Positions 4,134-46,745 of a stretch of DNA of 64,000 nucleotides are shown here, one piece after another; positions within the stretch are counted from its first letter, which is position 1, and each line of letters opens with the position of its first letter. Origin of the DNA: Christensenella sp. UBA2853. Its GTDB lineage: Bacteria; Bacillota; Clostridia; Christensenellales; Aristaeellaceae. The stretch covers positions 4,430 to 68,429 of the forward strand of contig DEFL01000013.1 of NCBI GenBank assembly GCA_002350845.1, read 5' to 3'. A program made the translations under genes and the position numbers. The notes below the pieces were generated by a model that was given only the letters and a program-made list of their open reading frames with translations, did no database searches and was not told where the DNA came from.

Positions 4134-4236
4134 AAAGAAGAGCCTCCTTAAAATGTGTTATTTGGTTACCTGAGAGAAATTATAGACATTCCCGCATCCC
4201 ATGTCAAGGATCATTTCCCAATCGTACTTTTTTCCT

Positions 4237-4764: not shown

Positions 4765-4935
4765 CGTCGAATCCCTCCCATTTCTCTCCTGCATTATACC
4801 ATGGACTGCGCTGAACTGTCCTGCAGCTCCACACCCGCCGCATTGACAGCGTTTCCAGAGCTCTGCTACAATCTGATGCATCCAGACAACGCTGCTTTTC
4901 AGGGATGCATTCCCAAGCTGAAAGGAGCCTCGTTC

Positions 4936-9659: not shown

Positions 9660-9674
9660 TCTTCCCGCGTTCCA

Positions 9675-9702
9675 AGAGCAGTGCTGCATGCACTGCTCTT
9701 TT
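9675..9702 (+). terminator. Intrinsic terminator after the SBP gene (probably partial, internal to the operon)
   Basis: AGAGCAGTGC-tgcat-GCACTGCTCT followed by TTT. Confidence 0.7.
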
Positions 9703-9794
9703 CCTGCCTTTTCCTTGCGACTTTCCAGTGCGTATGATATCATGCACAGGCATGTCTTATTGCTTTTTCATGCCTGTGATGAGGAGCCCGACAC

Positions 9795-23110: not shown

Positions 23111-23189
23111 CGTCCTCACCCCTTGCCTGTTTCATCTACTTGATGAGTGCATGCTTTCTATAGCAAACCGTTTCGCAGAATGAAGCGAA

Positions 23190-26090: not shown

Positions 26091-26149
26091 TCCGTGCACT
26101 CCTTTTCTGTTTCAGGTTATGCGCCCGTGCCGCCACCATCTCTGATCAC

Positions 26150-26845: not shown

Positions 26846-27019
26846 ATGGTTTCCCCCTTGCATACAAACCGGGCATGCTGCCTGCTTCCGGTATCCGTGA
26901 ACGAAATGGATTGTATCATTTTTTTGCTTTCCCGTCTCTCCCTGATCTGCAGTTCATGAAAAGCATCTCCGTCATGAAGGTTACGCCGGATCTGCACGAG
27001 CACGGAAAAGCATTCCGTG

Positions 27020-27060
27020 AAAAAGATCCCGGCAGCTCATTGCTTCATGGCCGCCGGGAT
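27020..27060 (-). terminator. Intrinsic terminator ending the peptide-exporter operon
   Basis: Minus strand: CCCGGC-n21-GCCGGG followed by ATCTTTTT, 36 nt after the ABC stop. Confidence 0.7.
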
Positions 27061-27095
27061 ACCGCTTTGAATGATCTTTTTCTCTGGCTTTGATC

Positions 27096-29288
27096 TCATA
27101 CCGTCTCAGTATCCAGACGCTGCCGTGCAACCAGGTCCGCAAACATGCCTTTTTTGTCGATCAGTTCGTTATAGGTTCCTTCCTCCACAATCACACCTTT
27201 GTCCATCACCAGGATCCGGTCACAGTTGCGGATCGTGGACAGACGGTGCGCAATGACAATGCGCGTGCAGTGAAGCCCGTCGAGCGCATCGGAAACCTGC
27301 TTCTGCGTCTTGTTGTCCAATGCGCTGGTGGCCTCATCAAAGATGAGAATGCGCGGCTTTGGAGCAATTGCCCGTGCGATCATCAGACGCTGCTTCTGAC
27401 CCCCGGAAATGCCGCCCTGCCCCTCAGAGATGATCGTCTGCATCCCCATCGGCATCGCACGTATATCATCCGCAATGCCGGCTGTTTCTGCAGCTTCCCA
27501 TGCCTGATCGAGTGTCAGCTGCGGTGCGGACAGCGTAATATTGGAGAAAATGTCTCCCTGGAAAAGCTGGCCGTTCTGAATCACGACGCCGATCTGTCTG
27601 CGCAGCACTCTGGGGTCCAGGCTGGTCAGATCATGATGATCATAATACACTGCGCCGCTTTCCGGCCGCTCAAACCCAAGCAGAAGCCTGACCAGGGTGG
27701 ATTTTCCGCAGCCGGTGCGGCCCACAATGGCGACATACTCCCCTGCTTTGATTTTCAGGGAAAGGTCCCGCAGAATGTACGGCGTGTTCTGTTCATAGCG
27801 GAAGGACACGTGGCTCATCTCAATATTGCCCGAGACCTTCACAGACGCTTCCTTCTCTTCGGCAATCTCCGGCTCACTCTTCAGGATCGGCTCGGCCATC
27901 TCCAGGACCGGGCGGATGGAAGCGGCAGAAATGGCGATCCCGGCCAGTGCTGAGAAGGCGCCCATGACGCGTCCGTATGCCGCACTGAATGCATAGTACT
28001 GGCTGCCTTCAACACCGGTAGCCACGGCCAGATAATAGAGAATCACCGTGCCGATAAGGGAAATGGCCGTCTGCAACACTTTATTGACCTTCAGGAACAC
28101 AGGCGGATTGTATTCAAGACGTGCAGTCTTGGCATACAGCCGGCCCCAGCGCGCAAACACTCGCTTTTCAGAGCCGGATAATTTGATCTTCTGAATCCCG
28201 TTGAGTACGGCATAGCTCATGCCTGCCTCCTCAGCACTCAGCTGCATCTGCTTGCGCGAAATGCCGATCTGCACAAGAGAGGCCGTCACACTGAGTACAA
28301 CCGTTGCAAGAATGATGATCACAGAAGGCCATACCAGAGCCGGCGCAAAGGTGAAGATCTGTCCGATATAAAGCAGTGACATGAGACTGCTCAGACCAAT
28401 GGACAGGATATTGTTCAGCAGCATGCTGCACAGTGAACTCACAGAGCCTGCGCGTGAGGATAATTCGCCGGAGGAATACTTGCGGAAAAAGCTCACCGGC
28501 AGAGACAGGATCCGCATCATCACAGAGGCTTCCACCGCCTGGGAAGTTTTGGTGTTCAGTCTCTGCATCATCAGTTCACGCACAACGCTCAGCATCTGAG
28601 AGGCAAATGCGCTGGCCATGAGAAAGACAGCCACGCCGTTGAGTATGTTTGCTCGTTTCTGCTTGAGAATGGTGCCTGTAATCAATTGATACACCTGCGG
28701 CTCAATCATCCCAACCAGAGTGACGGCCAGCGTTGCCAGCACAATCAGCAGAAGGTCTCCTTTGGAGATGCTGTTCTTCATGTAAATCAGCAGGTCCGGA
28801 ATGCCAAGTTTCTTCATCGGCAGCGGCTGATAAAAGCACAGCGCATCTCTGGCAAACCTGGAGGCATTTTTGCGTGTGACCCGGGTCATTTTTCCGGTTT
28901 CAGGGTCTTTGAATTCATAGCCCATGATCATGCCGGGGAGAAGCGCAACCGTTGCCCCGGTATCCTTCATGTAACCCAGCATCGGTCCAAAGGCGTCATT
29001 CTGCCAGCCTTCTTCCAGAAGGACATCGCGCATCATCAGGCCTGCAGGGCGGAGAGCATATTCAAGCTGTTCGTTCACATCGGTAATCGACTCAGGTATC
29101 TCAACCGGCTTGCGATGGTAATATTTCAGAATATCATCCATGGCTTCCTTTGCGATCAGCCTTTTGTCTTCCGCACGTTCGGAATCCCATTTATCCATGA
29201 CAACACTGGCCATGCGAAAAAAGGAATCTTCCAGTACTTCCTGGTCACTCTGCTGACGCATCCGGATCTGTTCGCCAAACCATCCCAT
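27096..29288 (-). CDS. ABC exporter (TMD-NBD) with a non-catalytic N-terminal domain; second ABC of an NHLM-type bacteriocin/peptide export system, 730 aa
   Basis: N-terminal 150 aa lack the catalytic Cys; 6-TM exporter core; GRTGCGKST, ISGGQKQR, LIFDEATSALD. Confidence 0.8.
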   Translation of the reverse strand: MGWFGEQIRMRQQSDQEVLEDSFFRMASVVMDKWDSERAEDKRLIAKEAMDDILKYYHRKPVEIPESITDVNEQLEYALRPAGLMMRDVLLEEGWQNDAFGPMLGYMKDTGATVALLPGMIMGYEFKDPETGKMTRVTRKNASRFARDALCFYQPLPMKKLGIPDLLIYMKNSISKGDLLLIVLATLAVTLVGMIEPQVYQLITGTILKQKRANILNGVAVFLMASAFASQMLSVVRELMMQRLNTKTSQAVEASVMMRILSLPVSFFRKYSSGELSSRAGSVSSLCSMLLNNILSIGLSSLMSLLYIGQIFTFAPALVWPSVIIILATVVLSVTASLVQIGISRKQMQLSAEEAGMSYAVLNGIQKIKLSGSEKRVFARWGRLYAKTARLEYNPPVFLKVNKVLQTAISLIGTVILYYLAVATGVEGSQYYAFSAAYGRVMGAFSALAGIAISAASIRPVLEMAEPILKSEPEIAEEKEASVKVSGNIEMSHVSFRYEQNTPYILRDLSLKIKAGEYVAIVGRTGCGKSTLVRLLLGFERPESGAVYYDHHDLTSLDPRVLRRQIGVVIQNGQLFQGDIFSNITLSAPQLTLDQAWEAAETAGIADDIRAMPMGMQTIISEGQGGISGGQKQRLMIARAIAPKPRILIFDEATSALDNKTQKQVSDALDGLHCTRIVIAHRLSTIRNCDRILVMDKGVIVEEGTYNELIDKKGMFADLVARQRLDTETV

Positions 29289-29303
29289 ATTCTCTCCACC
29301 TCC

Positions 29304-31493
29304 TTACTCGCTTGTTACCAGTTCGGCATAAGCGCCGCCTTTGGCATACAGTTCCTCGTGCGTTCCGCGCTCCACGATTTTTCCTTTTTCCAGCACAATG
29401 ATTTCATCGCAGTCACGGATCGTGGACAGGCGGTGCGCAATGACAATACAGGAAATGCCTCTCATCTTCACCGCTTTGACCAGTTCATATTCTGTTTTCG
29501 CATCCAATGCGCTGGTCGCCTCATCCAGAATAATAACCGACGGGTCCTGGGCCAGAACGCGGGCAATTTCCAGTCTCTGTCTCTGACCACCCGACAGGTC
29601 TCTTCCGTTCTCGATCAATTTGTTCTGGTAACCATTGGGACGCTGCAGAATATCATCATGGATCTGTGCATCCCTTGCCGCCAGGATGACTTCAAAATCC
29701 TCGATTGATTTATCCCACATCCGTATATTGTTGGCGATGGTATCCTCAAACAGAACAATGTCCTGGTCCACCATGGCCACAGAGCCTGTAAACACGCTCC
29801 GCGGGATATCCTTGATCGGTCGTCCGTCAAACAGGATTTCTCCGTCCCAGGGCTGATACAATCCGGTAATGAGCTTGCTGACCGTGGATTTTCCGCTGCC
29901 GCTCCCTCCAACAATGGCAATCCGGCTGCCGGGCTTCATGTGCATGGAGAAGTCTTCGATGGTGGGATTTCCCAGAGGCGAGTAACCGAAGGTGAGATTG
30001 CGAACCTCCACTTCCCCCTTCAGTTTTGCATAATCCTCATTCTTCTTTTCTCTGCTTTCCTGAAGCATGGGATCATCCGGATATTCCATCACGTCCTCTA
30101 CGCGTTCCATCTCCGTGCGCATTTCCTGGATCGTCTGTCCCGCACTGACCAGGGTCATGGCCGGGTCCATGAAAGAGGTAAGCAGTCCCTGGAACGTTGT
30201 GATCATGCCCAGAGTAAAGTTTCCGTTCATGGCCAGGCGCACGCCAAGGAACAGAACGGCATAGTTGCACAGTGTATTGATCAGTGTGGGAATCATTCCA
30301 TACCGGGCATTGAGCGTGTCAAAGCGGACCTGCTGAGTATTGACAGAAGCCTGATAGCCCGACCACTTGCGGAAGAAACCGGCTTCCGCGCCAGAAGCCT
30401 TGATGGTTTCCGCCATGCTGATGCCTGCCATGGTGGCCGATGCCAGTTTGCCCGAATCCCGCATCTGAACGCGCGTGAGATTCACCCGCTTTTCAGACAT
30501 GTACCGCGCCACAATCAGGTTCAGGACCAGTGAGAATAATCCCAGCAGTGTCATGAGCGGGCTGTATCGCAGCATGATCACCAGATAAAAAACCATCATC
30601 ATGGTGTTCAGGGCCAGCGGTGCCACAGTGCCGACGAGTGTCCCGGCAATCGAAGCGTTTGTTCCCTGGCGCTGAAGAATATCTCCGGTCAGGCGCTGAG
30701 AGAAAAACTCAACGGGCAGTTTCAGGATTTTCCACATAAAGGACGCATTGCCTTCGATCGCCATTTTTCCGTCGATTTTGAGCGTATAAATCGTCCTCGC
30801 CCATTCCACAATGATCTGGAAAATGCACAGGAGCGCCATCACCAGGATGAAAGGATGCAGCCATTCCGGCGCACGTCCTGACAGCAGCCTGTCAAAAAAG
30901 ATTCGGGACATGACGGGGTTGATGACACCAAACAGGTAGGTGATCACAGACATCAGAGTGACAAACGCGACGGCCGGCCCCGCCCCTCTCAGACGTTTTT
31001 TGGCAAATTCAAGCGTGCTCTTCCGTTTTCCTGACGGCACAAACGACGGCCCCGGCGCAAACGTCAGGACAAGGCCGGTAAACGATTCATCAAACTCCTC
31101 CATGGATACCTGAACAATCCCTCTGGCCGGGTCATTGATCACGGCTTTTCCCTTTTTAAATCCATCGAGGACCACAAAGTGATTGAAATTCCAGTGAATA
31201 ATACAGGGATAGGTGGCCTGGGTTTTGATCCCGTCCAGTTCCATTTTGTATCCATGGACTTCCAGCCCGTAGTTTTGGCCTGCAAGATAGACGTTTTTCA
31301 TGTTTGAACCGTCTCTGGAAACACCGCAGTCCAGCCGGACCTGTTCGAGCGGGACCCATTTCTGGTAATAGGCGAGAATCATGCACAGACACGCCGCCCC
31401 GCATTCAAGCGCTTCCATCTGCATGATCATCGGAACTTTGGCGACACTGTCTTTGACAGGCTGATGCCTGCTTTTACTCAGCTTCTCTTTCAT
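29304..31493 (-). CDS. C39 peptidase-domain ABC exporter (double-glycine leader cleaving), about 729 aa
   Basis: QMEALECGAACLCMILAYY (catalytic Cys), HFVVLDG (His), INDPARG (Asp); GGSGSGKST, LSGGQRQR, IILDEATSALD; ATG at 31493 after GAGGAGG. Confidence 0.9.
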   Translation of the reverse strand: MKEKLSKSRHQPVKDSVAKVPMIMQMEALECGAACLCMILAYYQKWVPLEQVRLDCGVSRDGSNMKNVYLAGQNYGLEVHGYKMELDGIKTQATYPCIIHWNFNHFVVLDGFKKGKAVINDPARGIVQVSMEEFDESFTGLVLTFAPGPSFVPSGKRKSTLEFAKKRLRGAGPAVAFVTLMSVITYLFGVINPVMSRIFFDRLLSGRAPEWLHPFILVMALLCIFQIIVEWARTIYTLKIDGKMAIEGNASFMWKILKLPVEFFSQRLTGDILQRQGTNASIAGTLVGTVAPLALNTMMMVFYLVIMLRYSPLMTLLGLFSLVLNLIVARYMSEKRVNLTRVQMRDSGKLASATMAGISMAETIKASGAEAGFFRKWSGYQASVNTQQVRFDTLNARYGMIPTLINTLCNYAVLFLGVRLAMNGNFTLGMITTFQGLLTSFMDPAMTLVSAGQTIQEMRTEMERVEDVMEYPDDPMLQESREKKNEDYAKLKGEVEVRNLTFGYSPLGNPTIEDFSMHMKPGSRIAIVGGSGSGKSTVSKLITGLYQPWDGEILFDGRPIKDIPRSVFTGSVAMVDQDIVLFEDTIANNIRMWDKSIEDFEVILAARDAQIHDDILQRPNGYQNKLIENGRDLSGGQRQRLEIARVLAQDPSVIILDEATSALDAKTEYELVKAVKMRGISCIVIAHRLSTIRDCDEIIVLEKGKIVERGTHEELYAKGGAYAELVTSE

Positions 31494-31713
31494 CGGACAG
31501 CCTCCTCGTAAGATCAGGTCTGCGGATTCTTTCCATGGCCGTTTCCATCCGGATGCATGGCCATTTCCCGAAAGCATCCCGCAGAAAAGGATATGCAGGT
31601 TTCTCTACTCCTGTCATTCAGGAAGAGAGGTGCAGGGACCACACGTGCATCAGCCGCGCAGATGGCTGGTGTACACGCCGGTTCCTCACACGGTTCACCT
31701 GCATTTCCTATCG

Positions 31714-32382
31714 TCAGTTCAGCAGAAAGCTGATCGGCGTTGTGGATTCAGTCACAATCTGTGCATCATAAACGCCGTCCGGAAGCTGTTTGCTGATATC
31801 ATCCAATGCAATGCTCACCGTTGCATAATCGTAGCTGTGCGCTCCGGTCACTGTCCCCAGTTTCTCATCCAGCCGCACCCTGCGGTCGGATTGAAAAGCT
31901 CTTTCCAGCTCACCGCGCATATCATAGGCAGAGGTGACGCCTTTTTCCACAAAAACCAGATATGGATCATCTGTCATGCCTTCCGGAAGTCCGTGCTGAT
32001 CCACAAATGTCAGCATATACGTCCCGTCTTCGAGCGTATGTTCATCATCCATATGGATTTCAAGCGCCAGCCTGCTGGCTTGTGAGATATCCTTGATCTC
32101 CCCGTTTTCTCCATTAATCCGCACGGGCATATGGATCTTGACGAGGTCCAGCTGAGAGAGCGGCAGGTCGCCTGTCACAAATCCATAGGTCGATGTCACC
32201 TTGATATCAATGGTGCTTTCCATGACCGATGTGGAGGCATAGACAATAAAGCCGACCAGCAATGCAATGACAGCAGACAATATCATCCACAGTTTCGGAC
32301 TGGTCACCCGCATATAATCATGCATTTCCTCGGGGGAAGAAATCCGGTCGATGCTTTCTTTTCGAAACAGCTGATGATCCAT
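31714..32382 (-). CDS. Short HlyD-family / bacteriocin-secretion accessory protein, 222 aa
   Basis: N-terminal FRKESIDRISSPEEMHDYMRVTSPKLW followed by one TM, as in HlyD-type peptide-secretion adaptors; AAAGGAG RBS. Confidence 0.65.
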   Translation of the reverse strand: MDHQLFRKESIDRISSPEEMHDYMRVTSPKLWMILSAVIALLVGFIVYASTSVMESTIDIKVTSTYGFVTGDLPLSQLDLVKIHMPVRINGENGEIKDISQASRLALEIHMDDEHTLEDGTYMLTFVDQHGLPEGMTDDPYLVFVEKGVTSAYDMRGELERAFQSDRRVRLDEKLGTVTGAHSYDYATVSIALDDISKQLPDGVYDAQIVTESTTPISFLLN

Positions 32383-32447
32383 GAAATGGAGCTCCTTTCT
32401 GTATAACCACAGTCAAAGATGTCTGTCAATTCAGCCTGCTCCTGCTT

Positions 32448-33896
32448 TTACAGCAGGAGAGACAATGCACCATACAGGGCCACAAACAGAATCAGAAGAA
32501 AGAGTTCCTGTTTCCAGCTTTTCTGCATGAGTCCGATGCATTCCCGCATGAATGCGTTTGGCCAGTACCACCACTTGGTTCTGCTGCCGATTCCTTCTGC
32601 CTGCAGGCCTGCCGAATCAGCCCAGATCCCGCTGCGGAACACATGATAATTCGTGGTCGCAAACAGGATTTTACCCGCGTCCGACATTTTTTCGATGATT
32701 GCTTTTGAAAAAGCCATATTCTCCCAGGTATTGCGTGATTGCGTCTCCGGAACAATCAGGCTGTCCGGAATCCCCTGATCCAGCATATACCTGCGCATGG
32801 CTTCCGCCTCAGGCATGCTTTCGTTTTTTCCCTGACCGCCGGAAGGAATCAGGACCGCCTCTTTCCCGGTCTGCTCCTTCTGCTTTCTCCAGAATGCAAT
32901 GGCCCGGTCTACACGTCCGCGCAGAAGCGGCGGAAGCGTTCCGTCCTTCCGGAACCAGCAGCCCAGAATAATGATAAAATCCCGATCTGGTTTCGGCTCA
33001 TATCTTGCCGCTTTCAGGCCGCAGATCATGGTCCCGGCAAGCATGCATTCAAAGTAAACAAACACGGTCGCATAGACATTTTCAAACGTGTTCCTCAGGC
33101 GGTTTTCCCACTCGCTTCCGGCAAAATCCTGCCAGCCCCAAATCCAGCCCAGCAGTTCTCCCAGAACAAGCAGCACGCTGATGATCAGCCCTAAAGCATT
33201 CGCCGTGCGCTTCCCTTCATGCCGCATGAGAATCAGATTGCTCACCGCCATTGCGATGGAAAAGACAAGCACAAGCGGAGCCGTCAGATTCATGAAGGAC
33301 CGGGCTGCCCCGCTGATCGATGACACCGCCATAATCATGCCGTATTCCGCCGGGTCAAGGATATGCTGCAGGGTCACAGCAAGCATGACAGCAAACGCCA
33401 CCAGGGCAAATATGCCAAACCCGACATAAAATACCGTGGCATACCTGTAAAGGCGGTATCCCTTTGCCCTGAAGAACTGCCGCATCATGATCCATCCGGT
33501 CAGGAGCCAGAACAGGGTCACGGCAGCGAGGACAAAGGCGTCCCCTGTAAAGTTATCATTGGAGCCGTTATAAATCGTCATAAAGGCATCCACAGAAACA
33601 GGAATGAGCGAAATGTCTTCGCCGCTCTCATCCTGGATGAGCAAATACGTCCTTCCCTCATGCTCAGGCCAGAGTCTCAAAACCAGGTCCCGGTTTTTGA
33701 CTTCAACCGTTTCCACCCTGACGATGCCTTGTTCCTCCGGCATGATCTTCAGTGACTCGAGCTGATAGTCCCCGTTTTCCGAGTATGGCAGCGGATGATA
33801 GGTCAGGAAAGCATTCCCTGCCACCATCCGGCATCCCAGGCAGAGGACTGCAAGAATGACGGCACATATCGCCACCTGTCTGGCAGTCTGTTTCAA
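32448..33896 (-). CDS. Polytopic membrane protein with a C-terminal DUF218 (YdcF/ElyC/SanA) domain, 482 aa
   Basis: IPSGGQGKNESMPEAEAMRRYMLDQGIP...ETQSRNTWENMAFS, typical of DUF218; TTG start after GGAAGGAG. Confidence 0.7.
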   Translation of the reverse strand: MKQTARQVAICAVILAVLCLGCRMVAGNAFLTYHPLPYSENGDYQLESLKIMPEEQGIVRVETVEVKNRDLVLRLWPEHEGRTYLLIQDESGEDISLIPVSVDAFMTIYNGSNDNFTGDAFVLAAVTLFWLLTGWIMMRQFFRAKGYRLYRYATVFYVGFGIFALVAFAVMLAVTLQHILDPAEYGMIMAVSSISGAARSFMNLTAPLVLVFSIAMAVSNLILMRHEGKRTANALGLIISVLLVLGELLGWIWGWQDFAGSEWENRLRNTFENVYATVFVYFECMLAGTMICGLKAARYEPKPDRDFIIILGCWFRKDGTLPPLLRGRVDRAIAFWRKQKEQTGKEAVLIPSGGQGKNESMPEAEAMRRYMLDQGIPDSLIVPETQSRNTWENMAFSKAIIEKMSDAGKILFATTNYHVFRSGIWADSAGLQAEGIGSRTKWWYWPNAFMRECIGLMQKSWKQELFLLILFVALYGALSLLL

Positions 33897-33934
33897 ATCC
33901 GATGCTCCTTCCAGTCCCTTGAGGACAAGACATT

Positions 33935-35020
33935 TTACCGCTCAATGACAGTAATCATCACATGGTCCGGTCCTGCAAAATGAATGCATCGCAGTCCCGT
34001 GTATGGATCCTGCTGAATACTGCCTGTGTCAATGCCGTTCAGATTCAGCCTGCGGATAATGGGCTTGAGATGTCTCGCCGTCAGCGTCAGTGACTGCTGC
34101 TTGAGAACTTCCGTCGTGTTTGAGCAATGAATCTCAATCTGATACTTTCCCATCTCCAGCAGCATGTCCGTTCCGGGCTGATCAAGCGGAACGATCTGTT
34201 TGATCAGGCGGAATCCCAGTTTCATGACATAAAAATCCCAGATTTCCTCTTCATTGGTCGCCAGAAGCGCCGTTCTTGAAAGTCCCATCTTTCTGGCGAA
34301 CGGATACAGGGTTCGCTCTCTGGCATTCTTCTTCCACCGGCGATAGGATTTCAGTTCCTTGCGCCAATTCGGATGGGTCACCACATAGGCGACGGAGATA
34401 AAGAGAAACTGACCGATGATCCCGCCAATCGTATTGGAGACCAGATCATCCATATCATAAAACCCGCGCCGGGTAATCAGCTGCAGATTTTCAATACCGA
34501 ACGAAATCAGAAAGCAGGCCACAGCCGGACGGATGCGCACCTTGGCTCTGAACCATCCAGAGATATACGGCAGCATGTATCCCATGGGCACAAACAGCAT
34601 AATGTTCATGTAGACCTGGGTAATATTCGCCGTATTCACAATCTGAATGTGCGACATGGCTTCCCGGAATCCCTTTGTAAAGAGGATGCGGATCACATCA
34701 AAAATACCGTAATCAATTTTCACTGCACTCTGAAGGTCTTCATACAGTGCGACATGTACCTGATAATCCCTTGACGCGGACCTTGAGAAAAATACAATCC
34801 ACGACAGCATCAGCATATAGATCAGAAAGATGGACGCAAGAATGCTCTGCCGCATTTTGAGCATGGTTTCGGCTTTTGGATTCCGGCTGATTCCGCCTTC
34901 CAGATTCAGCCCCATTTTTCTGCATACGCGTCTGTCAATCCAAGGAAGCAAAAAAACCATCACCAAGACCATCCCGGTGACGAACAGATTTGTCGATAAA
35001 CTGTTTGCATTCAGGCGCAT
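33935..35020 (-). CDS. VanZ-like membrane domain fused to a VOC (glyoxalase/bleomycin-resistance) domain, 361 aa
   Basis: VanZ-like NIMLFVPMGYMLP and IENLQLITRRGFYDMDDLVSNTIGG; C-terminal 125 aa beta-alpha-beta VOC-like (IWDFYVMKLGF...IHFAGPDHVMITVIE). Confidence 0.6.
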   Translation of the reverse strand: MRLNANSLSTNLFVTGMVLVMVFLLPWIDRRVCRKMGLNLEGGISRNPKAETMLKMRQSILASIFLIYMLMLSWIVFFSRSASRDYQVHVALYEDLQSAVKIDYGIFDVIRILFTKGFREAMSHIQIVNTANITQVYMNIMLFVPMGYMLPYISGWFRAKVRIRPAVACFLISFGIENLQLITRRGFYDMDDLVSNTIGGIIGQFLFISVAYVVTHPNWRKELKSYRRWKKNARERTLYPFARKMGLSRTALLATNEEEIWDFYVMKLGFRLIKQIVPLDQPGTDMLLEMGKYQIEIHCSNTTEVLKQQSLTLTARHLKPIIRRLNLNGIDTGSIQQDPYTGLRCIHFAGPDHVMITVIER

Positions 35021-35092
35021 TGACTAGCCTCCATAGGATTCACACCGGCAGAAGCGAATGCGCTGTCTTTCCGCTTTCGACCGCTCATCCGC

Positions 35093-36292
35093 TCATTTTC
35101 CCTGATCTGCGGGAATCTCTGTATATCCAATACCGATCAATGAAGTGACCGCGCGTACAAACTTCCTGTTCCGGTAGTTTGCCATCTTGTTGATCATCTT
35201 TCCCCGGAAAATCAGGGCCATGGTATTGCCGCCGTCAAGATTCAAAGCCTCTGTGACGCCGCGTTCTTTCATCATTTCTGCCACACGCTGCAGCGCAGTC
35301 CCTTTGCTGAAGCTGGTGCGTCCCTGAACACTGATGAGCAGGTAATGATTGGGTTCAATCATGCCCAGTGCCTGCCTTGGCTCAATGCTGCGAAAATAGG
35401 AATACACCATTTCATTGATTCTGCCTTCATGCAGCAAAACAGGGCCGAAACTGAACACATTTACGGCCCCTTTTTCAAGCAGTTCTTCCGCCGTATATTC
35501 ATTGCACGGATAAGTCATCAGTGTCCCGTCCGGATACTGTGCCATCATATCCAGATTTGGCAGATGATGCCCGGATTTTTGATTGGTCCTATCGCTGATG
35601 ATCACTCCATTGCGGATAATGATGCCGACCGTCTCATGATGTGCCATCCGCTCTGCATAAAAATCATCCGAAAAGCCGAGAACAAACTGCTCCCTCTCGG
35701 CTATCACATAGGGATATTGAAACTTTTTCCCGGGATGGTCACTGTCCGTCATCACGGTGCGAAAGGCCTGTCCGTTTCGGGTTCGAATGTCCGTTTCAAA
35801 CCACACCAGCGGGATCGAGGAATCCTCTCCACGTGAAATGGTCACGCGGAGATCCCGGCTGATGTATACCCAGCGGCCTTCCTCCTCGTTCTCTTCAATC
35901 AGTTCCCCGTCGCCGATGAGAAAACCTTCACTGTCCAGCGCCGCGCCTTCAGGGAATTCCGATGGCGGAAGCGTTGCCAATGGACGCATGGTCGGGTAAG
36001 GTTTGCTCACCGCCGCATCCGAGAACAGAAGTTCCCGGGTTTCTGCATCCAGTACCCCGGTTTCGTTCAGGCCGTTCATTCTCTGGAACTCGCTGAGGGA
36101 TGTCTGCGTCTGATCCGTGAATTTTTTCGTCAGCGATCCATCTTTGATATATCTCAGTTCCTGGAGACGCCTCTTCATTTCCAGCACATCGTCTCCCTTG
36201 GAACCGACGGCAAGCGTTTCCTCCGCACACACGGCAAAAAACAGAAAGGTACTGATGAGAAGCACAAAGAAAAGGACGATACCTTTTTTCAT
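35093..36292 (-). CDS. Secreted/anchored protein: PG_binding_1 domain plus phosphodiester glycosidase (DUF2233/NAGPA-like) domain, about 399 aa
   Basis: Signal/anchor MKKGIVLFFVLLISTFLFF; PG-binding repeat GDDVLEMKRRLQELRY...LSEFQRMNGLNETGVLD; ALNLDGGNT motif. Confidence 0.7.
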   Translation of the reverse strand: MKKGIVLFFVLLISTFLFFAVCAEETLAVGSKGDDVLEMKRRLQELRYIKDGSLTKKFTDQTQTSLSEFQRMNGLNETGVLDAETRELLFSDAAVSKPYPTMRPLATLPPSEFPEGAALDSEGFLIGDGELIEENEEEGRWVYISRDLRVTISRGEDSSIPLVWFETDIRTRNGQAFRTVMTDSDHPGKKFQYPYVIAEREQFVLGFSDDFYAERMAHHETVGIIIRNGVIISDRTNQKSGHHLPNLDMMAQYPDGTLMTYPCNEYTAEELLEKGAVNVFSFGPVLLHEGRINEMVYSYFRSIEPRQALGMIEPNHYLLISVQGRTSFSKGTALQRVAEMMKERGVTEALNLDGGNTMALIFRGKMINKMANYRNRKFVRAVTSLIGIGYTEIPADQGK

Positions 36293-36329
36293 ATACAGGC
36301 CATTCCTCCGGCATGGGCACAGGGCAGAG

Positions 36330-36815
36330 TTACTCACTCATATACTTTTTCAGCATGATCAGTGCATTCTGATGGCGGAGTTTGACTGCACCATAGCTCA
36401 GACCCATCATCTGTGCAATCTCTGTCAGCGTCTTTCCGTCATAATAGCGAAGAACAATGATGTCCATCATCTGCTGTGGAAGCTTGCGCAGGGCACCGGC
36501 AAGCTCGCTGAGTGTTTCTGTCTGCAGCAGACCTTCATCCACGACAGAGTCATCGGACATATTTTCATCGAGTTCTTCAGACGGCCTGGTTCTGCGGAAA
36601 TAGTCAATCACCGTATTTCTGGTGATCGTAAAAATCCAGGTGCCGACGGCCGCTTTTCCCTTGTCATAGTTGCCAATCTTCCGCTGGATCTTTTCAAACA
36701 CATCCGCACAGAGATCTTCTGCGTCCGAATGGTTCCGGACACGCGCAGAAATATATCCCATCACTTTGTTGCTGTATTCCATGTAAAGCTGGCCAATATC
36801 AATATCCGATGTCAT
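36330..36815 (-). CDS. ECF-type sigma-70 family RNA polymerase sigma factor, 161 aa
   Basis: Region 2 (DAEDLCADVFEKI, WIFTITRNTVIDYFR) and region 4 HTH (LTEIAQMMGLSYGAVKLRHQNAL); start overlaps the upstream small ORF stop (ATGA). Confidence 0.85.
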   Translation of the reverse strand: MTSDIDIGQLYMEYSNKVMGYISARVRNHSDAEDLCADVFEKIQRKIGNYDKGKAAVGTWIFTITRNTVIDYFRRTRPSEELDENMSDDSVVDEGLLQTETLSELAGALRKLPQQMMDIIVLRYYDGKTLTEIAQMMGLSYGAVKLRHQNALIMLKKYMSE

Positions 36816-37003
36816 GGATTCTTTTTCTCCTGTTCTTTCTTTTTGAGTGCATCGGGCGTGCCCGCTGCAGATACAAATTCCATCTCATCCATGCCCAGTT
36901 CTCTGACTCCGTACCGTGCATGCACGGAATCAATAATCAGCTGAAGGTCAGAGTTCCCTTCGAACTTCTGATAATCGAACAACTGTTTCAGTTTCTTTTC
37001 CAC
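36812..37003 (-). CDS. Small 63-aa protein with a leader-peptide-like LGMDEMEFVSAAG motif; function unknown
   Basis: GTG start 7 nt after GAGAGGAGAT RBS; translationally coupled to the sigma gene; promoter directly upstream. Confidence 0.6.
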   Translation of the reverse strand: MEKKLKQLFDYQKFEGNSDLQLIIDSVHARYGVRELGMDEMEFVSAAGTPDALKKKEQEKKNP

Positions 37004-37104
37004 GTTGAATATCTCCTCTCAAGCACTTGTTCTGCCTCAGACAGAACAGATCTTCAGTCGGTTTTCATATATTTTCCATGGCAGGTTCTTTCTCTGCACT
37101 TTCT

Positions 37105-37134
37105 ATTGTACCATGTTCGAGTCTGCAAAATCAA
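37105..37134 (-). promoter_or_regulatory. Sigma-A-like promoter heading the small-ORF / sigma operon
   Basis: Minus strand: -35 TTGATT (37134-37129), 18-nt spacer, extended -10 TGgTACAAT (37113-37105). Confidence 0.45.
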
Positions 37135-37336
37135 TTCTGTTCTACACTATTTTACACACACTCTTCCCTGCCTGGATTCTGCATTCCAGGCCTTTAAATG
37201 AAAGCCTGAACTTTCTGAAAAAGCGCGATTTGACATGCCATCGTGCTTCCATCGGCGTATCAATTCAAGGAGGCACGCATTCTGTGCTTCCAAAGCTGCT
37301 GCATTATGTATCGATGAAAGGACAAAACATACAAAC

Positions 37337-39919
37337 ATGCAAACCATTCAAAAGGTTGTCGCCGTGCTCCTGGTCATGATGATCCCGATGACTGCAGTCT
37401 GCGGCACAGCTGAAAACATGGAAACTCATTTCACTGTTCAGGCGACTGAAAGCAGTGAACCACACTTCACCATAGAAACAGAGGATAAACTGGTCGCAGC
37501 ATCCGGTTTGTCCGGCAAGGAATGGGGTAAGCAAGCCAGCGTCCAGAAGGAAGCCGGCCTTTCCCACCCGGTCACAGAGGAAAAACTCAAACAGGCTGCC
37601 CCGCATGCACAGGTGTTCCGTAAAGATGGGAAAATCTATATGATGCAGGATCTCGAGGGACTGGCATCTGTCCGCAACGCAATGGATGCTTACCGTACAG
37701 TCTACAGTCTTCTCCCTCTTCTCCAGGGGGCAGAGGGCACATCCCTGCGGCTCTGGTCGCAGTTGGCCATGGGAACACATCAGGTGTACTCTTTCCAGCA
37801 GGTTTTCGAGGGGATGACCGTTCCCACGAGTACGGCGAAACTTGTTGTCGATCAGCAGGGCCGCCTGACTGCCGTGTTCAGCTCTCTTTCCCCGGTGCTT
37901 CCTGAAAGCACAGGTACATCCGTCATCACGGCATCCGATGCTGAAGATATTGTCCGCCGGTTTCTGGCATACAATAAGGCAGCTGACAGCGTGATGCCCG
38001 CCTATACTACGCGCACCGTCATCTCTCAGGATGAACACGAAGACGGCGAAGTGCTCCCGGATATTCTCGCGTGGATCGTCTATTCCCATAATCCGCGCTT
38101 TCCGGACTGCACGACCGTTGATCTCCCCTACCTGGCCCATTTTGTCAGTATGGATGGCACTTACCTGCGCTACAGCGCGGTAGCCATCCCTGAAGACCCG
38201 GCCCTCAATGCCGGTTACTCCGCTGCCTACGCCTTTGAATTCATGGAACCAACAGAATGGACCGGTGAGGTCGTAGCAATGGATGGCAGCATCCTTTCCC
38301 TCAGTGTGCCCGTCATGCGGGACACCCGCACCGGTGTATGGTATCTGGCAGACCCCATCCGCAAAATAGCGGTCGGCGAATACAGCGCACTGGCTTTTGG
38401 TGACGGCAATATTCAGCTGGCTGCCCAGACCGACAACACTGCCTGGAATGATGAAGACCTCATCACCTATGCCAATATGATCCGGGTCTGGGATTTCTTT
38501 GCAGCGGCCGGATGGCCCGGACCGGATGGCAACGGCACACCCGTTCTGCTTCTGAGAAACATGTGTACCGAAAACGGCGACCCGATCTACAATGCCGCAT
38601 ATATCGGACAGTGCAGAGGCTGGCAGTGCTTTGCATACGGCGGAAACGCCTACATCGGACAGGGACTGGATGTCATTGCCCATGAGTTCACGCATTGTCT
38701 GACCGACCGGGTCATGAACACCAATCTCTATCAGGATGATATGGGAGCCATCAACGAATCCATGTCCGATATCCTTGGGAACCTCTGTGAAATGCTCTGT
38801 GAGAACACCAGGGATCCTGATTGGCAGATCGGTGAAAGCACCGGCGTCACGCTGCGTTCCATGCTCAATCCGCATGATCACCAGCAGCCGGAGTATATCT
38901 GGGATCTTTACTATGCTCCGCACACGATCAAACCCAACGACCTGAACGACCGGGGCGGCGTACACGCCAATTCTTCCATTCTGAACTATGTCGCCGCCCA
39001 TCTGTGTGAGACCTATGGCATGTCCCTGGAGGATGCAGGATATCTGTGGATGCATGCTGCATTCGTTCTCACCCCGACAACTGACTTTACGCAGCTGTCT
39101 CACGTGCTCCCCTGGGTACTGAAGATTTCCGGAAACAGCAGCTTTACAAAAGGTCTGGATCAGCTGATCCAGCATACCCGAATGGCGGAAACCAAAGTCC
39201 CGGAGACGCTGCCCGAACACCAGCGTATCGTCAGTCTCAAGCTCCCGGATGCGCCTGTTTACAGAGATGGCCAATGGGTGATGTTCGCAATCCAGCTGAA
39301 TACAGAGAGTATCTCAATTATTCTGCAGTCCATTCGCGATCTCGCGGGCCATACCATCCGAATGGATCTGAACAGTGAAGAATACTTCAGCCATCTTTCC
39401 AGTCTTCTCCACACATTGCACCTGGATGCCTCAAGCATTCTGAATTATCAGCTGTCTGAGTCCGCAATCATGGAATGGCTGGCCAGTCTCTCTGAAGATA
39501 TCATTACGTATCACACATCTTGGGAAAGCAATGCGGATCATGAAATCAAACTGATTGTCAAAGACGCACCGACACTGTATGTGATGGCTGGCTATGCTGA
39601 GAACAGCGAAGATGTTTCCGGTCTGGCTGTACTGGTCGGTGACGAATGGTTTGACCCGCTGAACTTTTTAACCAGTGATTCCGAAGCAGCTGAAACGGAC
39701 GATGCCGGTCTCATCACCCGCATCTTCTGCAAGCTCTTCGAGCACATCCTGGGCGGTCTCGGGAAAACCGGCTCAGACGCAAAGAGCATCACACTCCCGT
39801 CCACTGGACTTGAGAAGGTTTCCATGCATGAGCCCGCACCCGAAGAAATCGAGTATCTCCCAGAAGATGAGCTGAACTCTGTCGGCTTCCTTCCGCATAA
39901 CGGAAAGATCGGCCGCTGA
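37337..39919 (+). CDS. Secreted M4 (thermolysin-like) zinc metalloprotease with a long C-terminal extension, about 860 aa
   Basis: HEFTH (HExxH), GAINESMSDILG (third Zn ligand Glu), GGVHANSSILN; signal peptide from MQTIQKVVAVLLVMMIP. Confidence 0.8.
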   Translation: MQTIQKVVAVLLVMMIPMTAVCGTAENMETHFTVQATESSEPHFTIETEDKLVAASGLSGKEWGKQASVQKEAGLSHPVTEEKLKQAAPHAQVFRKDGKIYMMQDLEGLASVRNAMDAYRTVYSLLPLLQGAEGTSLRLWSQLAMGTHQVYSFQQVFEGMTVPTSTAKLVVDQQGRLTAVFSSLSPVLPESTGTSVITASDAEDIVRRFLAYNKAADSVMPAYTTRTVISQDEHEDGEVLPDILAWIVYSHNPRFPDCTTVDLPYLAHFVSMDGTYLRYSAVAIPEDPALNAGYSAAYAFEFMEPTEWTGEVVAMDGSILSLSVPVMRDTRTGVWYLADPIRKIAVGEYSALAFGDGNIQLAAQTDNTAWNDEDLITYANMIRVWDFFAAAGWPGPDGNGTPVLLLRNMCTENGDPIYNAAYIGQCRGWQCFAYGGNAYIGQGLDVIAHEFTHCLTDRVMNTNLYQDDMGAINESMSDILGNLCEMLCENTRDPDWQIGESTGVTLRSMLNPHDHQQPEYIWDLYYAPHTIKPNDLNDRGGVHANSSILNYVAAHLCETYGMSLEDAGYLWMHAAFVLTPTTDFTQLSHVLPWVLKISGNSSFTKGLDQLIQHTRMAETKVPETLPEHQRIVSLKLPDAPVYRDGQWVMFAIQLNTESISIILQSIRDLAGHTIRMDLNSEEYFSHLSSLLHTLHLDASSILNYQLSESAIMEWLASLSEDIITYHTSWESNADHEIKLIVKDAPTLYVMAGYAENSEDVSGLAVLVGDEWFDPLNFLTSDSEAAETDDAGLITRIFCKLFEHILGGLGKTGSDAKSITLPSTGLEKVSMHEPAPEEIEYLPEDELNSVGFLPHNGKIGR

Positions 39920-46291: not shown

Positions 46292-46745
46292 GAGTCATCC
46301 CCTGCCTTCCTTATGCTGTGAAACCTCTGATTTCCTGACTTTGTGGTGCCTGAGGCATCTCCACTGCGCATTCCCGCAGATTGCTTTTCTCACTGAAGAA
46401 CCTTTTCAATTCGATTCATTGTAAGAAAAAAGGCATGCGAAAACAAGAGACACAAATCACCGTTTTCGTCCTGCCCTGAACAATCGCCCGATGAGCCGTA
46501 TCCCGCACGCTCTTTACCAGGCATTTCTCTGTGTGTGCCTTGCAATCAAAGGGCACATGGCTATATAATACTTTAGAACAGATATTTGTGCATCTTTTTT
46601 TGCGTTATTGGCATATCATCTGTCCGATATGCAGCATTCTGCAACTGCAGCCAGTGCTCCGGATGTCTGGACAATACAGATCGATGCTTTTCTGTGCGTG
46701 ATGCGTTTCCCGGGGAATTGATCAAAGAGAAAGTGAGGCCATGTG

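Follow-up and report, generated by a model that had tools for sequence, protein, structure and literature searches.

Introduction

Peptides with a double-glycine (GG) leader, such as ComC, LahA, and the class II bacteriocins, are exported by peptidase-containing ABC transporters (PCAT/AMS; for example, ComA and LahT). As reported, the helix before the cleavage site carries Leu at −12, Glu at −8, and hydrophobic residues at −7 and −4, followed by Gly-Gly, Gly-Ala, or Gly-Ser at −2/−1, and a Nif11-type leader is still cleaved after N-terminal deletions of 10–30 residues (PMC6363468). In the Nif11-like and NHLP precursors, a long conserved leader precedes a hypervariable C-terminus, and export is assigned to a trio of proteins, TIGR03794, TIGR03796, and TIGR03797 (Haft et al. 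2010, PMC2887384). On the regulatory side, the anti-sigma factor FlgM is removed from sigma-28 by the flagellar export machine, and ECF anti-sigma factors such as RseA (sigma-E) and RsiW (sigma-W) are inactivated by regulated proteolysis, in which site-2 cleavage exposes an Ala-rich C-terminal degron for ClpXP. In RNPP-type pairs (Rap-Phr, ComR-ComS, and Rgg-SHP), a small propeptide gene lies next to, and sometimes overlaps, the gene of its cytoplasmic regulator, and class II bacteriocin loci encode autoinducing peptides.

In this study, we examined a 63-residue peptide that looks like the export signal of a bacteriocin, whose gene overlaps that of an alternative sigma factor and lies near a peptide-cleaving exporter. 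Relatives occur in hundreds of gut and rumen bacteria, often next to such an exporter, which points to an undescribed way of tying gene expression to peptide export. A preliminary description had read the peptide as an exported pro-peptide, more likely a signal than a bacteriocin, with a small soluble anti-sigma or co-factor as the alternative. The observation itself was confirmed, whereas the interpretation was supported only in part.

Results

The peptide gene and its surroundings

All positions refer to the window, that is, the whole 64-kb stretch of DNA that was analyzed. Every sequence-level statement of the preliminary description holds, with the one correction that the feature lies on the minus strand, as do the other features described here. 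The ORF (36812–37003) starts with GTG and encodes 63 residues, MEKKLKQLFDYQKFEGNSDLQLIIDSVHARYGVRELGMDEMEFVSAAGTPDALKKKEQEKKNP. Its ribosome-binding site, GAGAGGAG (37013–37020), lies 9 nt before the GTG, and a 5′-UTR hairpin of unknown function (TGTTCTG, 7 nt, CAGAACA; 37027–37049) lies just before this site. In two syntenic relatives, the stem of the hairpin changes from T-A to C-G on both sides, which is one compensatory pair. The stop TGA (36814–36812) overlaps the ATG (36815–36813) of a 161-aa ORF (36330–36815) in an ATGA, and the last codons of the peptide gene carry the Shine-Dalgarno sequence of this second gene. The downstream product is a genuine ECF sigma factor, with regions 2 and 4 only (PF04542 and PF04545/PF08281) and a score of 97.9 bits against TIGR02937 (cutoff 42.9); its closest solved structures are SigE and SigW.

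A sigma-A-like promoter had also been claimed, but this point is weaker than stated. The candidate (TTGATT, 18 nt, TACAAT, with TG upstream of the −10; 37105–37134) matches only 9 of 12 positions in a region where such matches are no more frequent than in shuffled sequences, although it is invariant in the two syntenic relatives.

Downstream of the sigma gene lie genes for a secreted PG_binding_1 + NAGPA (phosphodiester glycosidase) protein (35093–36337), whose true start is probably about 15 codons inside the ORF, a VanZ-like membrane protein with a C-terminal glyoxalase-like domain (33935–35020), and a DUF218 (SanA/ElyC-like) membrane protein (32448–33896). The glycosidase gene keeps the same order in the two syntenic relatives and in a third locus. 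An NHLP-type exporter trio starts 4.4 kb downstream of the peptide gene on the same strand. Its first gene (31714–32382) encodes a 222-aa single-pass membrane protein without a Pfam hit; it had been called HlyD-like, but it matches TIGR03794 only over its first 37 residues (20 bits against a cutoff of 156). The homolog of this short "stub" precedes the C39-ABC gene in most exporter-bearing loci. The second gene (29304–31577) encodes the C39 peptidase-ABC subunit (Pfam Peptidase_C39, 121 bits; TIGR03796, 931 bits against a cutoff of 853), and the Q/C/H/D catalytic residues are visible in the motifs QMEALECG, NHFVVL, and INDPA of its translation. The third gene (27096–29288) encodes an ABC subunit without a peptidase domain (TIGR03797, 733 bits against a cutoff of 709).

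Leader-like region, predicted cleavage register, and tail

Residues 1–47 (36863–37003) form the leader-like part of the peptide. This part comprises an N-domain with the invariant residues L5, L8, F9, D10, Y11, Q12, K13, F14, N17, and L20 (LFDYQKF), followed by a GG-type recognition helix in which L36, E40, M41, V44, and A46-A47 fit L(−12), E(−8), hydrophobic (−7), hydrophobic (−4), and small-small at −2/−1. Cleavage is predicted after A47. Among 3,634 start-ORF combinations in all six frames of the window, this ORF is the only one that matches a GG-leader-like pattern, and no other GG-leader or Nif11-like ORF was found there. The tail, GTPDALKKKEQEKKNP (residues 48–63; 36815–36862), is Cys-free and K/E-rich, and part of this K/E richness is imposed by the Shine-Dalgarno sequence of the sigma gene.

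The preliminary description had proposed to look for homologs in which the small-small junction is conserved while the tail varies, and this pattern was observed. In an alignment of relatives and in 86 family peptides, the four helix positions are conserved, members with true GG align their GG onto A46-A47, and the N-part is conserved from Clostridia to Treponema, whereas the tails differ between lineages. However, AA-G replaces GG in 81 of 86 peptides (about 94%), with GG or GA in only 4, while co-resident cargo keeps GG. G48 is conserved in at least 90% of members. The tails have a median length of about 17 aa, are 38% charged and 16% hydrophobic, and keep a loose G-x-P ... KK[DEN] flavor. 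Pooled dN/dS is about 0.15 for the N-domain and about 0.31 for the tail, without a sign of diversifying selection; the sequence pairs are not independent and dS is near saturation, so these values are indicative only. The AlphaFold2 model of the peptide alone has low confidence (mean pLDDT 64.6, pTM 0.31), with helices at residues 2–8, 18–31, and 38–46, three to four helices in total, and no packed fold. A fold search was not made with this model because its result would be meaningless.

An unnamed family linked to one sigma subfamily and to an exporter

The ORF is a real gene. It belongs to a large family that no database names, with 56 clusters at 90% identity and at least 1,264 clusters at 50% identity, found in Clostridia, Lachnospiraceae, Oscillospiraceae, and Treponema. 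To reveal its genomic context, we compared 80 related loci. A homolog of the sigma gene is adjacent on the same strand in 63 of them. In 51 loci the peptide gene precedes the sigma gene, and 42 of these are translationally coupled: 28 overlap, 16 of them by the 4-nt ATGA type, and 14 have gaps of 0–15 nt. Starting from the sigma side, 4 of 4 sigma clusters (6 places) have the peptide directly upstream. The link to the sigma factor and to the C39-ABC trio is conserved across phyla. The sigma subfamily comprises at least 1,454 clusters at 90% identity; the homolog search listed only relatives at 69% identity or more, so the point at which the association stops among more distant sigmas was not seen. 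In contrast, 17 of 80 loci carry solitary peptide genes, some Lachnospiraceae have two in tandem, and some members carry long, diverse C-terminal parts, some of them Cys-rich or zinc-ribbon-like.

Co-occurrence with C39 exporters had likewise been named in advance as a point on which the reading could fail. The C39-ABC gene lies within 10 kb in 29 of 80 loci, from Clostridia to Treponema, and often abuts the pair, in the orders stub-ABC1-ABC2-peptide-sigma or stub-ABC1-ABC2-sigma-peptide; no exporter lies within 10 kb in the other 51. In three loci, the sigma gene is the last gene of the exporter operon, and the peptide gene follows with its own promoter. However, in other loci the same exporter has obvious other cargo, in the form of arrays of Nif11-like Cys-rich precursors. 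The argument that the exporter must serve this peptide because no other substrate gene is visible is therefore not supported.

To find a receptor or a classical anti-sigma factor, we clustered all neighboring ORFs across the 80 loci, and none was conserved. Apart from the peptide, the sigma, and the exporter, no gene cluster occurs in more than 15 loci, and that one is the exporter's own small first gene. RsbW-like, STAS, and SpoIIE genes and a MatE-HATPase_c_2 fusion recur, but only in a minority of loci. No TPR-type regulator, receptor kinase, membrane anti-sigma, or modifying enzyme is conserved near the pair.

A family-specific ECF-type promoter

A promoter of the form TGCCA or TAGCC, about 15–16 nt, CGTATAAA, lies upstream of the peptide gene in about 70 of the 80 loci. 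Its position weight matrix gives 89 hits in 1.32 Mb against 0–4 in shuffled sequences, and its −35 element covaries with sigma region 4.2. The additional sites precede other GG-leader ORFs and secreted proteins, whereas none precedes the exporter genes. Solitary peptide genes keep the same promoter. In the window, the canonical promoter is degenerate: a variant (TGCCAT, 17 nt, CGACTGAA; 37053–37083) is the only match to the relaxed pattern (0.11 expected by chance), and the strict matrix scores it below 10 bits. This variant is conserved in the two syntenic relatives.

Relation to known peptide and anti-sigma families

Membership of the Nif11 or NHLP leader families, which the preliminary description had suggested checking with profile searches, is not supported. 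The window peptide gives no hit to TIGR03798, TIGR03793, or PF07862, and among 51 members only one reaches E = 0.056 and 0.062. A profile-profile comparison (hhalign) with co-resident Nif11-like precursors aligns only 24 columns next to the site, with a probability of 66%, and places AA|G on GG|G; the N-domains are not alignable. The peptide also passes none of the curated GG-leader models (TIGR01847, PF10439, PF03047, and TIGR03949). The window peptide has no hit, and among the 51 members there are only sub-threshold hits, which fall on GG-leader families, the best being 2.6e-4 to the CTB family. Recurrent weak hits to PqqD (8 members, best 0.007) and Topoisom_I (26 members, about 0.005) look like helix or low-complexity noise and were rejected. 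Searches of the PDB, Pfam, and NCBIfam gave no family. In particular, no anti-sigma domain (ASD, zf-HC2, or RskA type) was recognized, the sequence has no Cys or His motif, and membership of the FlgM family is not supported, with no Pfam hit at E ≤ 1. A bacteriocin reading was rejected for the window peptide because its tail is 16 aa, Cys-free, K/E-rich, and disordered. Collectively, the peptide carries a double-glycine-type recognition helix, but it is not a Nif11 or NHLP member. No published description was found in the literature searched, although most subscription journals were outside its reach, so this is not proof of novelty.

Discussion

Our best reading, which is tentative, is that the 63-aa product is the regulatory partner of the ECF sigma factor encoded right behind it and is built like a substrate of the neighboring PCAT. 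In this view, peptide and sigma would be made in 1:1 amounts from overlapping genes, and the conserved N-domain would hold the sigma inactive in the manner of an anti-sigma. The C-terminal helix (L-xxx-E-M-xx-V-x-A-A|G) would be recognized by the cytoplasmic C39 domain of the exporter, which would cut after Ala-Ala and thread the short, disordered, charged tail out of the cell. Capture and cleavage would free the sigma, and the remaining leader fragment, now ending in -Ala-Ala, would possibly be degraded like other AA-tagged anti-sigma fragments. The sigma would then transcribe, from the TGCCA/TAGCC-N16-CGTATAAA promoter, the peptide gene itself, other GG-leader cargo genes, and some secreted proteins. 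Sigma activity would therefore report free exporter capacity, as a secretion checkpoint or flux sensor comparable to FlgM and sigma-28. Our analysis demonstrates the gene family, its linkage to the sigma and to the exporter, the promoter with its likely regulon, and the GG-type register, whereas binding to the sigma, cleavage and export by the C39-ABC protein, and the AA degron are inferences only. In its boldest form, which is possible but held slightly more loosely still, the C39 domain would act as the "site-1 protease" of a leader-peptide-like anti-sigma, and cleavage of this pseudo-cargo would expose an Ala-Ala degron before bacteriocin-like cargo and other secreted proteins are transcribed. 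This would be a secretion checkpoint for type-I-like peptide export, widespread in gut and rumen Firmicutes and spirochaetes.

The pairing with one sigma subfamily, the conserved translational coupling, and the absence of any other conserved candidate anti-sigma or receptor support this reading, and the nearest solved relatives of the sigma all work with anti-sigmas. Because C39 domains need only the residues close to GG (PMC6363468), the nearly invariant N-domain needs another binding partner. The exporter linkage, the GG-type register, and the promoter fit as well; the systematic AA-G suggests that the site has a special role; and the short, weakly constrained tail on a peptide without a confident fold is as expected for a pseudo-cargo on a protein that folds when it binds a partner. 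However, there is no direct evidence of peptide-sigma binding or inhibition: neither was assayed, and no complex was modeled from the 43-row paired alignment of peptide, linker, and sigma. Moreover, the peptide has no recognizable anti-sigma domain or zinc motif, the canonical promoter is degenerate in the window, the gene order is the reverse of the usual sigma-then-anti-sigma order, and the solitary, tandem, and long-tailed members look more like a cargo family. Known PCATs release the leader inside the cell, so cleavage alone does not obviously remove the sigma-binding part. Ala at −2 is outside the published GG/GA/GS motif (PMC6363468), so cleavage at AA|G is unproven, and neither cleavage nor secretion was measured. 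A conserved leader with a hypervariable core is also the normal pattern of Nif11 and NHLP natural-product precursors (PMC2887384).

Whether the peptide is an exported signal or an anti-sigma-like partner is undecided. The only universally linked protein is the sigma, and our reading is in effect a hybrid of the two earlier alternatives. The pheromone reading is a live rival, although we consider it unlikely. Here the exporter would release the 12–20-aa tail as an extracellular signal that activates the sigma through an unidentified sensor or after re-import, giving a quorum-type positive loop. The GG-type leader and exporter linkage are consistent with this, as is the peptide gene being the prime target of the sigma's own promoter, which would give the positive feedback typical of inducer peptides in class II bacteriocin loci; other targets are GG-leader peptides. 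Adjacency of a propeptide gene to its cytoplasmic regulator, with the active part at the C-terminus, is the rule in Rap-Phr and other RNPP systems, the tails are not neutral, and solitary and tandem copies exist. In contrast, no receptor is conserved, a 161-aa ECF sigma has no peptide-binding domain, and the highly charged tails are unlike most known GG-exported pheromones. This reading also leaves the near-invariant N-domain, the AA-G site, and the widespread coupling unexplained.

Somewhat less likely still, the peptide might be ordinary cargo with a third kind of long leader for NHLP-type exporters, in which the sigma is only the pathway-specific activator without contact with the peptide, and the tail or longer C-terminal part is a product of unknown extracellular function. 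The leader-plus-variable-C-terminus pattern described for precursors exported by TIGR03794/6/7 systems (PMC2887384), the diverse C-terminal parts, the solitary copies with the same promoter, and the loci in which the peptide gene follows an exporter-sigma operon all favor it. However, most tails would make an unlikely product. Other cargo genes vary from locus to locus, while this peptide accompanies the sigma almost everywhere and is usually coupled to it; GG is systematically replaced only in this family; and no conserved modifying enzyme could explain the N-domain. The least likely possibility is a purely cytoplasmic anti-sigma or co-factor that the exporter never touches, with the leader resemblance a coincidence of an amphipathic acidic helix. 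The coupling, the absence of another anti-sigma, AA at the supposed site, the failure to pass any curated model, and the 51 loci without a nearby exporter are compatible with it, but the exporter linkage in 29 loci, the members with true GG followed by long cargo, the hhalign register, and the GG-leader targets of the promoter speak against it.

ECF sigma factors are the largest family of alternative sigma factors, and for many groups, especially in anaerobic Firmicutes, the regulator is unknown. Here, one sigma subfamily has a constant partner in an unannotated family of about 65-aa peptides. If the peptide is an exporter-processed anti-sigma, this is a new way to regulate an ECF sigma and a new job for PCAT exporters, as sensors as well as pumps. 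If it is a pheromone, this is the first peptide-signaling circuit wired directly to a sigma factor in these organisms. On either reading, the conserved promoter gives a direct handle for finding the bacteriocin-like peptides and secreted proteins that these uncultured gut and rumen bacteria switch on together, and the family deserves its own model in the protein databases so that the small gene stops being missed.

Comparison with described systems

The peptide shares with GG leaders exported by PCATs the acidic amphipathic helix, a variable part after the site, genomic linkage to a C39-ABC exporter, and co-regulation with bona fide GG-leader peptides. It differs in the AA-G site, in a 30-residue, nearly invariant extra N-domain, in a tail unlike bacteriocins, and in being welded to an ECF sigma gene rather than to immunity genes or two-component regulators. 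With the Nif11-like and NHLP precursors, it shares the long leader with a hypervariable C-terminus, two exporter families above cutoff, and the occurrence of paralogous and solitary copies, and it sits beside true Nif11-like precursors in some loci. In contrast, its N-domain is not homologous, the first exporter gene encodes a 150–220-aa stub instead of a full HlyD-like protein, no maturase is linked, and the original description mentions no sigma factor (PMC2887384).

Similar to FlgM, the peptide is small, poorly structured on its own, and genetically tied to its sigma, and the proposed logic is the same, in that a dedicated export machine would remove the inhibitor so that late or cargo genes are transcribed only when the machine is ready. 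The model of the peptide alone has low confidence and linkage to the exporter is shown, but binding and removal by the exporter were not examined, and the resemblance is left undecided. There is no sequence relationship, the exporter is an ABC transporter with a protease and not a type III system, the sigma is an ECF and not a group 3 factor, and a PCAT would export only the tail and leave the leader in the cell. As with RseA and RsiW, the gene is co-transcribed with and translationally coupled to that of an ECF sigma, the proposed cut would leave a fragment ending in -Ala-Ala, and the promoter has the sigma-W-like −10 element CGTATA; however, the peptide has no anti-sigma domain, zinc motif, or transmembrane segment, the gene order is reversed, the protease would be the C39 domain of an exporter, and the degron idea is untested. 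Finally, the locus resembles RNPP-type pairs and the inducer peptides of class II bacteriocin loci in the small gene next to its cytoplasmic regulator, the active part that would lie at the C-terminus, the autoinduction, and the control of bacteriocin-like peptides, whereas its regulator is an ECF sigma without a TPR or other peptide-binding domain, no histidine kinase or response regulator is linked, and its tails are much more hydrophilic than SHP, XIP, or CSP.

Gene organization of the peptide–sigma locus

The feature under study lies on the minus strand of the window. A GTG codon at 37003–37001 is preceded at a distance of 9 nt by GAGAGGAG and opens a 63-codon ORF that ends at 36812, encoding MEKKLKQLFDYQKFEGNSDLQLIIDSVHARYGVRELGMDEMEFVSAAGTPDALKKKEQEKKNP. 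The TGA of this ORF overlaps the ATG of the next ORF (ATGA), which encodes a 161-aa protein with Sigma70_r2 and r4 domains. This protein passes the ECF superfamily model (TIGR02937, 97.9 bits against a cutoff of 42.9), and its nearest solved relatives are SigE and SigW. Downstream on the same strand, in order, are genes for a secreted PG_binding_1 + NAGPA protein, a VanZ-glyoxalase protein, a DUF218 protein, a 222-aa single-pass membrane protein (hereafter the stub), a C39-peptidase ABC protein (ABC1; TIGR03796, 931 bits against 853; Pfam C39, 121 bits), a second ABC protein (ABC2; TIGR03797, 733 against 709), and a VanX-like M15 dipeptidase. The PG_binding + NAGPA, VanZ-glyoxalase, and DUF218/SanA-like genes between the sigma and the exporter, together with the VanX-like D-Ala-D-Ala dipeptidase gene just after it, are related to the cell wall (26150–36337, minus strand), which suggests that in this lineage the operon also serves envelope protection or glycopeptide/lantibiotic tolerance. 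In addition, a large secreted thermolysin-like (M4) metalloprotease gene (37235–39919, plus strand) is divergently transcribed from the peptide gene.

The sequence features reported in the preliminary description are therefore confirmed. In a six-frame scan of all 3,634 start-ORF combinations in the 64-kb window, no other ORF with a GG-leader-like pattern and no Nif11-like precursor was found. However, two details are weaker than originally described. The proposed sigma-A-like promoter matches 9 of 12 positions, in a region where such matches are no commoner than in shuffled sequence, and the gene described as HlyD-like matches TIGR03794 only over its first 37 residues.

The peptide belongs to a real, large, and unnamed protein family

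A word-indexed search for relatives of the peptide found 56 clusters of 59–86 aa, all unnamed, and a profile search of 1.84 billion representatives found 1,264 clusters at E ≤ 1e-3 and 586 at E ≤ 1e-10, almost all of them 57–100 aa. Pfam, NCBIfam, and the PDB contain no family for it. The alignment shows a nearly invariant N-domain (L5, L8, F9, D10, Y11, Q12, K13, F14, N17, and L20), followed by an acidic helix L36-xxx-E-[ML]-xx-V-x. The small-residue junction, whose conservation alongside a varying tail had been singled out beforehand as a criterion for the leader reading, is conserved as A46-A47-G48 (each at least 90%), whereas the tail has no consensus beyond a frequent Pro at position 50. 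Pooled dN/dS is about 0.15 for the N-part and about 0.31 for the tail, although these values are rough because the pairs are not independent. AlphaFold2 applied to the peptide alone predicts helices at 2–8, 18–31, 38–46, and 50–61, with a mean pLDDT of 64.6 and a pTM of 0.31, which is not a confident autonomous fold. Moreover, eight of 51 family members in the alignment give weak hits (best E = 0.007) to the C-terminal half of PqqD, a leader-peptide-binding chaperone (residues 12–48 in the window peptide, for example); this is probably noise, but it recurs.

Not every family member carries the short charged tail. Some members, namely those at L070 (10001–10333), L076 (10001–10321), L067 (9965–10303), and L051 (9992–10351), all among the related loci described below, and the family peptide P0284, carry instead a C-terminal four-cysteine, zinc-ribbon-like module of 40–65 aa (CxxC ... 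CxxC). The same leader is therefore used for folded cargo as well.

Linkage to the sigma factor and the exporter

A pattern scan of one genome per species returned 80 related loci (designated L followed by a number) with 10-kb flanks, which come from rumen and gut Clostridia, Christensenellales, Oscillospiraceae, Lachnospiraceae/Butyrivibrio, and Treponema. The peptides were extracted, and the six-frame ORFs of every locus were searched with the proteins of the window. A homolog of the same sigma lies directly adjacent on the same strand in 63 of 80 loci, in the order peptide–sigma in 51 and sigma–peptide in 12. Of the 51, 28 overlap (16 by the 4-nt type) and 14 more have gaps of 0–15 nt. Looking for family members directly upstream of sigma genes, a search that had been suggested in advance, gave the same answer when seeded from the sigma side: four sigma clusters (six places) all have a 62–69-aa family member immediately upstream. 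In the Lachnospiraceae loci L024, L027, L029, L030, and L031 (about 9200–10200), two tandem family members precede the sigma, a 59-aa MFDFQRF type and a 66-aa LFDYQKF type.

Association with a C39 exporter, likewise named beforehand as a point to examine, was observed in part of the set: the C39-ABC gene lies within the locus in 29 of 80, often arranged as stub-ABC1-ABC2-peptide-sigma or stub-ABC1-ABC2-sigma-peptide. Two metagenomic relatives, L081 and L082, share the whole gene order of the window, and the divergent M4 metalloprotease arrangement is conserved in L081. No other gene is conserved. Clustering of all neighboring ORFs gave only the peptide (75 loci), the sigma (66), the ABC pair (35), and the stub as widely shared, and no kinase, membrane anti-sigma, or TPR regulator was among them.

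Other genes recur in subsets of the loci. In several loci, partner-switching genes encoding a STAS protein, a 5TMR_LYT-SpoIIE phosphatase (about 690–810 aa), and an RsbW-like HATPase_c_2 protein sit directly upstream of stub-ABC1-ABC2 (L055, L060, L075, and L078, about 1600–4950; locus L083, 1063–3539). The window has an RsbW-like gene and a SpoIIE phosphatase at some distance (22697–23119 and 24348–26099 on the minus strand; 46743–48449 on the plus strand). These genes could control the exporter or the sigma, and the analysis did not distinguish between the two. An unusual fusion of a MATE efflux transporter with a C-terminal HATPase_c_2 (anti-sigma-kinase-like) domain also recurs next to or near the peptide–sigma pair in one Clostridia lineage (window 24348–26099, minus strand; L001 10636–12405; L007 10726–12483; L083 6527–8284; loci L084–L086 1–1612). 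Furthermore, the Treponema loci (L043, L047, L048, L054, L063, and L069) have a conserved lipoprotein of about 390 aa directly after the second ABC gene.

A family-specific ECF-type promoter and its likely regulon

Upstream of the peptide gene in about 70 of 80 loci, 25–130 nt before the start codon, there is a motif consisting of cTGCCA or TAGCC, about 15–16 nt, and CGTATAAA. It is present at solitary peptide genes too, and in sigma-then-peptide loci it sits in the spacer between the two genes. In most of the Lachnospiraceae loci with tandem peptides, a copy lies upstream of the gene. A 34-nt weight matrix finds 89 sites of at least 17 bits in 1.32 Mb, against 0–4 in dinucleotide shuffles; about 60 of these sites were used to train the matrix. 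Of the roughly 28 others, many precede small ORFs with classical GG leaders, for example, in L046, L050 (two sites), L052, and L077, and the L052 ORF passes TIGR03949 and TIGR01847. Other sites precede secreted proteins and lipoproteins, and in the Treponema loci the sigma is followed by 851-aa secreted proteins that carry the same ECF-type promoter. None of the sites precedes the exporter genes. The -35 element covaries with the recognition helix of sigma region 4.2, while the -10 stays constant: SYGAVKLRH goes with cTGCCA, whereas SYAYVKIL and SYSNSKxxMKK go with TAGCC. This is what direct recognition by the adjacent sigma predicts, although phylogeny contributes to the pattern.

In the window, the motif survives only as a variant, TGCCAT, 17 nt, and CGACTGAA, at 37053–37083, which is the only match in the window to a relaxed pattern (0.11 expected by chance). 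This variant, the sigma-A-like promoter, and a 5′-UTR hairpin just before the RBS of the peptide gene (37027–37049, minus strand) are all conserved in L081 and L082, where one stem pair of the hairpin changes on both sides (T-A to C-G), a compensatory change.

Comparison with double-glycine leaders and alternative cargo of the exporter

The register of the peptide fits the published consensus L(-12)-xxx-E(-8)-L(-7) plus a hydrophobic residue at -4 (PMC6363468), if cleavage falls after A47. Family members that do have GG (the peptides P0052 and P0054 and those of L051 and L067) align their GG onto A46-A47. A profile–profile comparison with the Nif11-like precursors found in some of the same loci aligns exactly this 24-column stretch and nothing else, placing AA|G on GG|G. 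Searches against the Nif11, NHLP, and GG-leader models, which had been put forward in advance as a test of family membership, returned sub-threshold hits of family members that concentrate on GG-leader families (CTB bacteriocin, cerein IIb, bacteriocin_sig, ComC, Bacteriocin_IIc, Nif11, and NHLP), and none reaches a cutoff. In addition, the peptides do not conform to the strict motif with Gly at -2, as 81 of 86 have AA. The peptide therefore works like a GG leader by architecture and context, but it is not a member of any described leader family, and the resemblance of its N-part to Nif11/NHLP leaders proposed in the preliminary description is not supported. The earlier interpretation thus holds in part.

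The exporter is not short of cargo elsewhere. In L055 (10703–11499), L060 (10695–12635), L075 (9006–10294), and L078 (12074–15866), the sigma is directly followed by two to eight tandem genes of about 130 aa with Nif11-like leaders (TIGR03798, 31.9 bits against a cutoff of 32.3), true GG, and Cys-rich cores, whereas L056 (1065–2723) carries two such genes upstream of its peptide–sigma pair. These are probably unmodified or disulfide-rich bacteriocin-like cargo of the adjacent exporter. The earlier argument that the exporter has no other visible substrate holds for this window but does not hold across the family. Across loci, the peptide–sigma pair looks like the regulatory unit of a PCAT cargo system.

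Possible mechanism and relation to known systems

Three facts need to be explained together. The peptide is paired one-to-one, and mostly by translational coupling, with an ECF sigma that has no other visible regulator. Its N-domain is far more conserved than C39 recognition requires, since N-terminal truncations of 10–30 residues from Nif11-type leaders are still cleaved (PMC6363468). Finally, it bears a GG-type exporter signal in which GG is systematically AA-G, followed by a short, charged, weakly constrained tail. The most economical model is that the peptide is the anti-sigma-like partner of the sigma and a pseudo-cargo of the exporter. In this view, capture and cleavage by the C39 domain would release the sigma, which would then transcribe cargo genes and the peptide gene itself. 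We favor this model only tentatively: the family, its linkages, and the promoter are observed here, whereas binding to the sigma, cleavage, and degradation of the leader fragment are inferred, and none of the three is shown.

The alternatives appear less likely. The reading as a pheromone, which had been preferred in the preliminary description, is supported by the autoregulated promoter, by the analogy with inducer peptides and Rap-Phr-type pairs, and by solitary and tandem copies, but it lacks any receptor and does not explain the pairing, the conserved N-domain, or the AA-G signal. A plain cargo with a new long leader is somewhat less likely still; members with long Cys-rich or zinc-ribbon-like C-termini (L050, L051, L067, L070, and L076) speak for it, and a conserved leader with a hypervariable core is normal for NHLP and Nif11 families (PMC2887384), yet most tails make implausible products. 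A purely cytoplasmic anti-sigma is the least likely of these possibilities, as it ignores the exporter linkage and the GG-bearing relatives.

Literature searches for the motif and for combinations of ECF sigma, anti-sigma, PCAT, C39, leader peptide, and FlgM found no description of this system, although the literature covered was incomplete, so that this is absence of evidence only, and the founding paper on the NHLP/Nif11 export trio (PMC2887384) does not mention sigma factors. The components are of known kinds; a GG-type exported peptide, a PCAT, and an ECF sigma are combined in an arrangement not described before in the literature covered, and the peptide family is new to the databases. The logic of the proposed model is that of FlgM and sigma-28, and of flux sensing by Bce-type transporters. 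Moreover, the leader fragment would end in -Ala-Ala after cleavage, which recalls the ClpXP degrons exposed on RseA and RsiW after site-2 cleavage; this parallel would explain why AA is kept here while neighboring cargo keeps GG.
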